Assembly: GCA_905250025.1 (NCBI GenBank)
Contig: CAJNOJ010000203.1
Coordinates: forward strand, 64,001 to 128,000
Source: Adineta ricciae
Taxonomy: Eukaryota
Reading direction: 5' to 3'
Length of the DNA: 64,000 bases
The translations under genes and the position numbers were made by a program. Below, in pieces: positions 48,601 to 51,600 of this stretch (within the stretch, counting starts at the first letter, position 1; every line of letters begins with the position of its first letter). The notes beneath the pieces are model-generated. The model did no database searches and was not told where the DNA came from. It saw only the letters and a program-made list of their open reading frames with translations.

Positions 48601-51600
48601 CCAGATGTTCAGCTCCGATAGGTCCGATTTGGTTGGTGTGGATATTCAAATAAGTTAGTGTCTACAGGCATTTAAATTTTACATATCTTAAATTAAACAA
48701 CTGAAACTAACTAATGTACTTCGAAGAAGTAAAGAATTTGCTGCTCAATAGAAACAATCTGTATTTCAGTGGAGTACTCAAAAAATCCAGAGATAGTATA
48801 AATATAGATGGACACACTTGTAAGTAGAAAAGTCTTGAACTTTACACTGAGATATCTATCGAATAGTTTCACATTCATATGTCAAGTGAAATAGGCTGGT
48901 TTTGGCGGAAGAAAACTCACTCGATTAGTTTCCAATGCTTTACCAATATGTTGTGCCCCGACATCTCCAATTTGATTCTGATGTAGATATAGTTCCTTTA
49001 GTGTCTAGAGAGAAAGATAACGAGAAACTTAAATAGCTCACTATGCTCTTTATTATACTGTATTACTACTCTCAAAAACGAATAAACGAAATCAATCGAT
49101 AATGTCGATAGGTGTGTCAACGAAGATGTTTTATCTACTTTAAACTCGAACTCATCTCAATCGCAAAACTGCAAAGGTGTTCAACGTGCATCATAGAAAA
49201 TTTCACATTGGACACTTCTTGCTGCACCTTCTATGATGATTCGAATCGATCGAGAAAAGTTTTGACATAGAAGGAGTAGCTATTTGGGATAATTAAGGTG
49301 TTAATCTGTAAAAACATCTGCTTACTCTATTTGATTGTAAAGCATCGGCTAGGTATTGTGCTCCAATATGTCCGATTTGATTATCATTCAAAAATAATTT
49401 AGTGATCACCTATATCGAAAAACGTTCTACGAATAATGTAAATTGAGAAATTTTGTTTTAATGACAATATCGAGTGTGACAGTCAACTGATAAGCTATGA
49501 TTAATGGTAATCAACTTATGATTCGCATTTTCGTTATAAAACCTGCTCAGATAAATGGATTGATCTCTAACTCAACATAATTCTATTTTCAGAAAACATA
49601 TTTTAACAATAGTTGACATGAATCTTTACAGTAGGTCCTGCTGTCATACTGAAAATTCATAAATTAAAATCAAGAATATCTCACCGTATTCGTTTTCAAC
49701 GCCTCAGCTACAATTTCCATATCTTGATCAGTTAGTCTGGAACCAGATAAATCTAATATAACGTTATTTCCGTTGTTAGCAATCTTTTGCGACAGTTGTG
49801 GATTTTGGTATCTTGGTACAGGTACATTGTTAGCATTTCGAATCTGAGTTTCCATTTCCTATAATTATATAAGAATTACCATTTATTCGAAGACAAGAAA
49901 CCGAGAGATTATCACATATACGCTACAAATAGGTGCCCTCCGCTCATTTCTATATCTTGAGCAAAGGTTCAGGCTTTGAAATGGATAAATCAGAGAGTCT
50001 TAATGTCGAAACTTACTTTATTAGTTTTAAGTCCGTCCGCAACACATTGTGCTACTTCATTCTTGATATTATTCTGATATAAAGTCAATGTCTTTAGTGT
50101 CTACAGTTAAAAGTGAATAGATATTTAACTATGTGAATCATGAATTGACAAAAACTTACTTTGTTTGTTCGTAGTGCATCAGCCAGGTGTTCCAATCCAT
50201 CAGTTCCGATTCTGTTGTTATGCAATTCCAGATTAGTGAGTGTCTACATCATCAAGGACAGATGATTATAGATGTTACGAGATAACTTAATATTAAAATC
50301 ATGAATAAAGCAACATTCTTACTTGATTCGTTCGGAGAACATCAGCTAAATACTGTGCTCCCAGATCACTAATTTGATTGGCATACAATTTCAACGTTGT
50401 AAGGGTCTATATTCCAAGAACAAATTCAGAATAGTGCTTTCGAGAGCGAAATCTTCGATTATACTCTGCTGATTTCTAATCCCTTGGCCACGAGTTCCAT
50501 TTCTAGATCAGTGAGCTGCGATGAGTTTAGGTCGAGCGTTGCACTGTTCGCGCTATCAGCGATCTTTTGGTCAACTACCTGATGCCTGTGTCTTGGTACC
50601 GGTTCCAGTTTAATGTTTTTAATTTGATTGTGTAGATTAGCCAAATCTTCGAGACCTGCGACATGATTTTTGATCCGCGATAATGGTTTCAGTTCTAACA
50701 GCCTCGCGTCTGTCCTTCTTATAAAATCTTCAAACGGTCGTCTCGCATCCAAAAGTCTTTGCGGACGTTTATCTTTGGAAACAACAGCAAAATTGAACAC
50801 CTGTTCAATTAAATTCTGTTGTTCGCCTTGAAGCGAAAGTTTATGTTCTTCGATCCTTCTTTTATCGGTCGTCTCTACTAGACGAATTTCACCCAGCAAA
50901 GCCTCCTCCCGTTCTTCGATCCGACGGCGAAGTTCTCGCATGGTTTCACAAACCTGTTTTTCATTCAATTCCCTTTCTTTTTCCACTTCGATAATCATTT
51001 TATCCGCTCGATCCGACCGGTAGTTCAAAGACGCCTGAATTCCTTCCAAACTACCTTCACACTAAAACCCATTGACATGAATTACAGTCACAGTTCTTTC
51101 GATATAGCACTCACCTGCTCTTCTATTGTCTTCACATACGCAGTAATTTCAACCGGCGAATGACCCCTATGTTGTGTCTGTTGACACTCGCCACAAATCT
51201 CTCTCGCACATTGTTCGCACCAAAATTGTATTGAATGATCACCATGACCTTGGCATTGAGCTACTTCGCGAGGTCTGTCTCCAACGTGAAGCTTCCTATG
51301 ATTGCGGTATTGATCCACTCCATGAATGGTATCCCAACAGTTAGAGCAGAAGCTATGCTTGCAATCACTATCACACCAATATTCAGCTTCATTGGTGGCA
51401 CATCCATGGCATGGAACTGAAGCTGGCTCGGGATGATCTAGAAGGAAAACATATGGCAAGCCAATGATGGAAATGAAAATTATCAAATGTCTCACTAAAC
51501 AGTTGAATAAGATCCCGGACCGTTTGGTTTGGAGGTAATGCATTGATATTATTACCTTCGACCTTCATTCCATCCCTTTTCGGACATTCCAACAGACCGT

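Follow-up and report, generated by a model that had tools for sequence, protein, structure and literature searches.

The window analyzed here, a 64,000-nucleotide stretch of the Adineta ricciae genome (contig CAJNOJ010000203.1, positions 64,001 to 128,000), contains a gene, designated gene A, in which the junction between the coiled-coil region and the leucine-rich repeats (LRRs) occurs twice: once at the end of the coiled-coil exon (J1) and again within the LRR array (J2). J1 and J2 are true paralogues, with similarity far beyond chance. Judged by sequence comparison, J2 is an old coding exon conserved in all of the bdelloid genera sampled and does not signal recent rearrangement. On grounds of parsimony, we favor an origin by a single, old internal duplication over a gene fusion, with a probability of roughly 0.75.

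Gene A spans positions 51739-41886 of the window on the minus strand, as do all of the features described below, and was modeled as one 954-amino acid open frame with canonical GT-AG introns. The product is a bdelloid rotifer protein in which a RING finger, a B-box and a helical region precede a tail built from ribonuclease inhibitor (RI)-type LRRs. Exon 1 (51496..51739) carries the start codon and the RING finger (residues 15-53), which was matched by two Pfam families, zf-RING_UBOX (E=1.1e-10) and zf-C3HC4_4 (E=3.2e-8). Exon 2 (51115..51437) encodes the B-box region, where zf-B_box matched residues 140-175 (E=3.4e-7; 30.8 bits versus a cut-off of 24.1) and a second, weaker B-box/ZZ-like match at residues 90-131 fell under the curated cut-off. 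Exon 3 (50465..51061), defined by a single ORF and its splice sites, encodes the helical, coiled-coil-like region and ends with J1. The underlying ORF is 196 amino acids long (51049-50459), and its end reads ...LHNQIKNIKLEPVPRHRHQVVDQKIADSANSATLDLNSSQLTDLEMELVAKGLEISR. The charged region of this exon covers about 190 residues, of which the last ~45, the part that was modeled, are helical in an AlphaFold2 prediction. J1 itself comprises the final 63 codons of the exon (50465..50653; residues 326-388) and is made up of a helix, a proline linker, a second helix and a cap LRR (profile match, E=2e-27). The coiled coil and J1 likewise share a single exon in the L005 and L006 contigs.

The proximal LRR module follows, consisting of three 84-nt single-repeat exons at 50406-50323, 50243-50160 and 50100-50017 (50017..50406 overall); the statement in an earlier note on this DNA that the internal copy lies downstream of three LRR exons was thus correct. 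A 158-nt intron (49859..50016), the first among the longer introns, separates this module from the J2 exon (49685..49858), which is 174 nt long, has phase 0/0 and encodes residues 473-530. Its assignment as the internal duplicate of J1 draws on BLASTP, the gene model, profile searches and shuffled sequences. The cap LRR of J2 lies at 49768-49685, and the exon is flanked by an acceptor that reads ...ataattatag and a donor that begins gtgaga. The same note had drawn this exon at 49670-49855; a real exon does exist there, but the span given is that of the ATG-to-stop ORF, which reads METQIRNANNVPVPRYQNPQLSQKIANNGNNVILDLSGSRLTDQDMEIVAEALKTNT, and the exon runs from 49858 to 49685.

Beyond J2 lies the distal array (42704..49409), in which introns of 220-799 nt lie between 14 exons, each of 84 nt and encoding one repeat, and then a terminal exon (41886..41984) that encodes an atypical last repeat and the stop codon. 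The A. ricciae sequence P0004 has the same C-terminus. All of the LRR exons are in phase 0, and the whole protein was matched by Pfam LRR_6 with E=2.6e-67. A decayed LRR pseudo-exon with two in-frame stops is located within the last intron (42050..42116; nhmmer E=2.4e-4) and translates, from 42116 to 42050, as ILTTLNL*NN*IIDNGTRSLVDSIRNH. A search of the long introns that follow J2 for dead LRR exons and repeated DNA yielded this one decayed exon and no similarity between introns.

The view that the two junction blocks are clearly paralogous held on proper alignment, and both peptides quoted in its support were found exactly as given on the minus strand. BLASTP aligned J1 and J2 with 24/54 identities, 39/54 positives and no gaps (E=3e-16). 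The local alignment score was 125, compared to 24.5 +/- 4.8 for shuffled sequences (n=2000, maximum 47; z=20.8), and the non-LRR linker half alone scored 58 versus 17.9 +/- 3.9 (z=10.3). The similarity is greater than mere LRR consensus would provide, because the cap repeats of J1 and J2 match each other at 13/28 residues and any of gene A's 17 canonical repeats at only 5-10/28. When a J profile was searched against the six-frame translation of the window, two strong matches only were obtained (E=3e-30 and 2e-27); the next, a weak one (E=1.4e-3), falls in the window's second RBCC-LRR gene (gene B). The homology between J1 and J2 also extends about 10 codons further upstream than previously aligned, pairing LHNQIKN with METQIRN.

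The duplicate had been interpreted as a record of recent structural turnover at this locus, a claim that we reject in view of the saturated synonymous divergence, the low DNA identity, the conserved layout and the grouping of J segments by copy. Within the window, J1 and J2 differ by dN=0.45 with dS saturated (not computable), and their DNA identity is about 55-60% by our own count on the alignment. The best database relatives of gene A are bdelloid proteins from A. ricciae (70-76% identity), A. vaga (64%) and Rotaria socialis (about 56%), with further relatives in R. magnacalcarata, A. steineri and Didymodactylos carnosus. Adineta belongs to the order Adinetida, and Rotaria and Didymodactylos were confirmed as members of the Philodinida. 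Comparison with homologues from related species, in line with a check that the earlier note had proposed, revealed an order of J1, three LRRs and J2 common to all three genera: it occurs in A. ricciae, A. vaga, A. steineri, R. socialis and R. magnacalcarata, and in D. carnosus at the genomic locus L006. Every sufficiently long homologue (three Adineta species, two Rotaria species and two JGI contigs) had both J copies, arranged in this order with no more than three repeats between them.

In a neighbour-joining tree of J segments, a multi-species J1 group was separated from a J2 group, and each group mirrored the species relationships. The bipartition between J1 and J2 was recovered in 94/100 bootstraps; with distant cap outgroups added, bootstraps were only moderate (62, 43 and 48 of 100 for J1, J2 and J1+J2, respectively). 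Because dS is saturated, the layout is shared and the segments group by copy, the duplication predates the split of the sampled bdelloid orders. Comparison of the window's J2 with the J2s of two related cDNA contigs gave dN values of 0.29-0.32 with saturated dS, indicating that J2 is under coding constraint. Within this region, conservation is strongest in the three proximal repeats, whose dN against the related cDNA contigs is 0.14-0.19 (0.25-0.52 for J1/J2), and the number of distal repeats varies between species and between annotated isoforms. The internal junction is an ancient feature that has become fixed in the protein, and it does not testify to ongoing rearrangement at the locus.

Evidence that J2 is spliced into RNA comes from two JGI metagenome contigs of related rotifers: L001, 1873 nt long, and L002, 1653 nt long. 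Both are intron-less and contain one uninterrupted ORF in the order RING, B-box, coiled coil, J1, three LRRs, J2 and one or two further LRRs. Both resemble spliced RNA, because a single ORF spans positions that hold at least six introns in genomic loci. Over the boundary between the third repeat and J2, both read ...GLKTNK/EMEAQIRN... in a single ORF, and both enter intron sequence (gtaag...) after a repeat that follows J2. The direct joining of the third repeat to J2 therefore places J2 in spliced RNA, at least in relatives. J2 is probably included in the RNA of A. ricciae itself, with which its frame and splice sites are compatible. The earlier conclusion that the internal copy is spliced, and is not a start, agrees with the acceptor, the open 954-residue frame and these relatives' cDNA-like contigs.

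Some annotated gene models lack J2. The D. carnosus model P0025 skips LRR2, LRR3 and J2, which raised the possibility that this species retains the pre-duplication state. That idea was ruled out, given that the J2 exon is intact in the D. carnosus genomic contig: L006 carries the coiled coil with J1, LRR1, intact copies of LRR2 (with the family signature GTDGLEH) and LRR3, and a J2 exon that reads DMETQIRNINVIPKPKHENPQLEQLIANN...DDDMEIVANKLLKNN. Some R. socialis and R. magnacalcarata models also skip LRR cassettes. Because P0025 skips J2 and these Rotaria models skip cassettes, J2 could be facultative in some transcripts; models that skip J2, such as that of D. carnosus, are probably incomplete.

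We ran AlphaFold2 on residues 296-726 of gene A with a 13-sequence alignment (mean pLDDT 81.7, pTM 0.59). In the numbering of this model, J1 was predicted as a helix (31-42), a low-pLDDT stretch (45-50), a helix (55-63), a strand (69-71) and a helix (79-91), and J2 as a helix (177-184), a low-pLDDT stretch (188-192), a helix (197-205), a strand (211-213) and a helix (223-233). The pattern is the same in both copies: a helix (LHNQIKN in J1, METQIRN in J2), a low-confidence proline stretch (EPVPRH and VPVPR), a second helix (QKIA...), a strand (LDL) and a final helix. Confidence was 56-59 across the end of the third repeat and the J2 linker, and exceeded 90 in the second module. The top PDB matches in Foldseek were RNH1, NLRP14, NLRP3 and NOD2 (E~1e-19, probability 1.00), with an rmsd of about 20 A over full-length alignments (for example, to RNH1), a value consistent with a chain other than one continuous horseshoe. 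The proline spacer varies between species by 0 to about 35 extra residues; the longest, with ~35 extra residues, is a (PPVVV)n tract in one environmental rotifer sequence (P0080/L005).

The cap core of J is found in other proteins as well. A J profile built from exon-only sequences returned 297 matches among 1.84 billion representative proteins, many of them single-exon fragments of the gene A family. The core motif, Y.N..L...I..N...L.L....LTD.DM.IVA, heads LRR arrays in a caspase-LRR protein (A. steineri P0090), ADP-ribosyltransferase (ART)-LRR proteins (P0150/P0110, from D. carnosus and an environmental sample) and other B-box-coiled-coil-LRR proteins (P0087/P0162). In these proteins, as in gene B, the same core stands between an N-terminal effector domain and the LRRs. 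Unlike gene A, the other bdelloid cap-plus-LRR proteins have one cap only and are without the ME.QIRN helix that both junction copies carry in the gene A family; their profile E-values were 1e-7 to 1e-11, compared to 1e-20 or better for true J1 and J2 segments. We thus define J, from sequence, as a module of ~60 residues that combines a linker with the N-terminal cap typical of the start of such bdelloid LRR arrays, a unit previously unnamed. Because the same core also heads the LRR arrays of other bdelloid proteins, J2 most likely restarts a second LRR solenoid. The geometry of the resulting two-module tail is a prediction from one AlphaFold2 model.

In the origin that we favor, ~60 codons at the 3' end of the coiled-coil exon would have been duplicated before Adinetida and Philodinida diverged, the simplest route being one unequal-crossover or segmental duplication within gene A, and J2 would since have been retained as a coding exon, constitutive and in phase 0. 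With each copy of J would come the short ME.QIRN helix, then a flexible spacer rich in proline, and finally a helix with an atypical first repeat (Y.N..L...I..N...L.L....LTD.DMEIVA..L..N). J2 would thereby end the first solenoid and, after the flexible spacer, start the second, so that a hinge would connect two modules: the proximal one, conserved, with a cap and three repeats, and the distal one with a cap, 14 repeats and a terminal repeat, its repeat number varying by species. The ME.QIRN helix that J2 shares with J1 points to J1 of the gene A lineage, or a close paralogue, as the source. The repeats that follow each copy were also compared in register (L1 with L4, L2 with L5 and L3 with L6) and matched at 15, 14 and 10 of 28 residues, within the 10-20/28 range of canonical repeats. 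The repeats after J1 and after J2 thus carry no register signal from which to reconstruct how far the duplication reached or by what mechanism it arose.

Duplication and fusion predict identical present-day sequence, and our preference for duplication is one of parsimony. A fusion would have joined two tandem RBCC-LRR paralogues in a bdelloid ancestor, with a deletion that took the 3' end of the first gene and, from the second gene, the RING, the B-box and most of the coiled coil; J2 would then be a relic of the second gene's junction. The homology takes in the last coiled-coil helix (ME.QIRN), so that the copied piece began inside the coiled-coil exon, and tandem paralogues are known from the window itself, where another RBCC-LRR gene is located at a distance of 12 kb. 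However, profile and nhmmer searches of the 158-nt intron between LRR3 and J2 recovered no LRR or RBCC remnant, fusion requires more events than one internal duplication and, as weak support for an internal source, J2 is nearest to gene A's own J1 family and not to other RBCC-LRR junctions. Intron structure, for which the D. carnosus contig and two contigs from metagenomes served as comparison, also bears on this alternative. In the window, introns measure 53-79 nt before J2, 158 nt directly upstream of it and 220-799 nt after it, and a milder step is present in D. carnosus L006; the step is missing in L005, whose front introns already measure 170-340 nt, and we rejected it as a scar of an ancient fusion on the grounds that it is not diagnostic. 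We consider a fusion unlikely.

Two further readings were considered. In one, which is very improbable, coding begins at J2 in a separate LRR-only gene downstream, or in an isoform from an internal promoter, and gene A comprises two transcription units. An in-frame ATG does occur at J2 codon 2 (49855), the methionine is conserved in most J2 copies, the introns flanking J2 are longer than average, and prokaryote-style gene callers report J2 as a stand-alone ORF in many metagenome contigs. Yet J1 conserves the same methionine at a position inside an exon, isoleucine replaces it in one R. socialis J2, a canonical acceptor lies directly upstream of J2 in a continuous frame, and LRR3 is joined to J2 in frame in the cDNA-like contigs L001 and L002. 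The other reading, that J2 is a decaying pseudo-exon or that its resemblance to J1 reflects chance or LRR consensus, had only a priori standing, together with the truly decayed LRR exon elsewhere in gene A (42116-42050). It is effectively refuted by the open phase-0/0 frame and intact AG/GT sites of J2, an alignment at E=3e-16 and z=21, a dN well under saturated dS between species, and the presence of J2 in all sampled bdelloid genera and in the spliced RNA-like contigs.

The order of domains in gene A, with a RING followed by a B-box, a long helical region and a C-terminal target-binding domain, is shared with the TRIM/RBCC E3 ubiquitin ligases, and its N-terminal half matches them by sequence in the RING and B-box. 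It differs from them in its RI-type LRR array, its bipartite tail and its duplicated linker and cap; to our knowledge, none of the canonical C-terminal classes of TRIM proteins (PRY-SPRY, NHL, COS-FN3, PHD-bromo, filamin, ARF and MATH) is an RI-type LRR array. A full-text literature search returned no description of the bdelloid RBCC-LRR family or of the J module. The family is conserved across the sampled bdelloid genera and probably has a two-module LRR tail. A reasonable reading of the sequences is that its members represent a TRIM-like scaffold, the proximal module being conserved and the distal array serving as a variable surface for recognition. The hinge and two-module function, and any E3-ligase or ligand-sensing role of the product, are putative. 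If these proteins are immune-type E3 ligases, the proximal module would offer a place for partner binding and the distal array one for ligand binding. A more speculative scheme, which we regard as doubtful at best, holds that the cap and RI-type LRR cassette is the common sensor module of a bdelloid-specific receptor repertoire with RBCC, caspase, ADP-ribosyltransferase and NACHT-like heads. In the gene A family, the J2 hinge would then stand between a proximal adaptor module, which is conserved, and a distal array of single-repeat, phase-0 exons subject to combinatorial skipping or to truncation through intron retention. Splicing would in this way diversify the recognition surface of a TRIM-like E3 ligase.

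To duplicate a linker and first repeat within a gene is an ordinary kind of evolutionary event, and LRR modules that are capped separately and arranged in series are an already known architecture. Gene A shares 28-residue alpha/beta repeats and in-phase exon cassettes with the LRRs of RNH1, NLRP3, NLRP14, NOD2 and LRRC34-like proteins; it differs from RI/NLR-type LRR domains in having one repeat per 84-nt exon and an internal block of helix, proline spacer and cap that breaks the array. In Slit, several separately capped LRR domains (D1-D4) occur in series, and the caps are cysteine-rich extracellular LRRNT/LRRCT motifs. Gene A likewise has tandem, linker-joined LRR modules, each with its own N-terminal cap, whereas its cap is a cysteine-free, cytosolic-type, RI-like first repeat. 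The protein P0131 has a similar cap pattern (L..L..NDP.LT.L.LS...LTD.D...L..AL..NT), with homology to gene A established for the LRR consensus at most. It contains four cap-plus-LRR modules with proline-rich linkers between them.

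Intron length changes abruptly within gene A, the RBCC-LRR gene on the minus strand (51739-41886), and the step falls at J2, the internal duplicate exon of the coiled-coil/LRR junction (49858-49685). The five introns preceding J2 measure 53-79 nt and the one directly upstream of it 158 nt, while all 15 that follow span 220-799 nt. The step is mild at the D. carnosus locus (L006) and absent from the environmental rotifer contig L005.

In two cDNA-like metagenome contigs from related rotifers, L001 and L002, all introns are spliced out through J2; each then carries, after one or two post-J2 repeats, an unspliced 'gtaag' intron followed by a stop (1800-1873 and 1550-1653, respectively). 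Several genome-annotated homologues (P0006, P0011, P0013 and P0017) show a like ending (...VS...). Retained introns, or premature termination within the long distal introns, may be common.

Annotated isoforms P0001-P0003, P0008-P0010 (from R. socialis, on one contig), P0013, P0018, P0023 and P0024 differ solely in their choice of 28-aa LRR cassettes, and the reading frame is kept because all of these cassettes are phase 0. For D. carnosus, the annotated model P0025 lacks LRR2, LRR3 and J2, although these exons are intact in the locus itself. Cassette differences among annotated models may reflect either real alternative splicing or annotation noise. Only one dead repeat was detected in gene A: a decayed LRR exon at 42050-42116 on the minus strand, inside the last intron, which reads ILTTLNL*NN*IIDNGTRSLVDSIRNH and contains two in-frame stops.

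The window contains a second coiled-coil plus LRR gene, gene B (62273-63999, minus strand), which continues past the window end. Its LRR exons lie ~130-280 nt apart, implying introns of roughly 50-200 nt. The gene B coiled-coil/LRR junction (YHHPELENFIADHQ...LADRDVQLINEALQNNN) is a weak match to the junction profile (E=1.4e-3), and its coiled-coil exon has no Pfam match.

The proline spacer of J2 varies in length. In one environmental rotifer (P0080, encoded at 5600-5914 of L005) it has grown to ~35 residues of (PPVVV)-like repeats, and a smaller insertion, VPVPVVPPRPP, is present in jgi21 (L002). The cap core of the junction block also begins the LRR arrays of five other bdelloid proteins (P0090, P0110, P0150, P0087 and P0162), whose N-terminal domains are very unlike one another, including caspase, ADP-ribosyltransferase and other B-box/coiled-coil types. 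These varied domains ahead of a common cap core suggest that a single cap plus LRR cassette has been shuffled between effector heads. An independent example of a serial-module layout like that of the gene A family is P0131 (1328 aa), in which four RI-type LRR modules are separated by proline-rich linkers and every module restarts with a similar cap, L..L..NDP.LT.L.LS...LTD.D...L..AL..NT.

Adjoining gene A head-to-head is a plus-strand gene (52943-54168) encoding a ubiquitin domain and NHL repeats. In L005 this neighbour (371-1684) likewise sits upstream of the gene A homologue, and in D. carnosus L006 an NHL gene (3543-4675) lies upstream of the RBCC-LRR gene, both in the same orientation, indicating that synteny is conserved with local inversion. 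Farther along the plus strand, an intron-less 682-aa ORF (54396-56444) encodes a domain of the ADP-ribosyltransferase exoenzyme type (PF03496, 24.7 bits) together with many TPR repeats.
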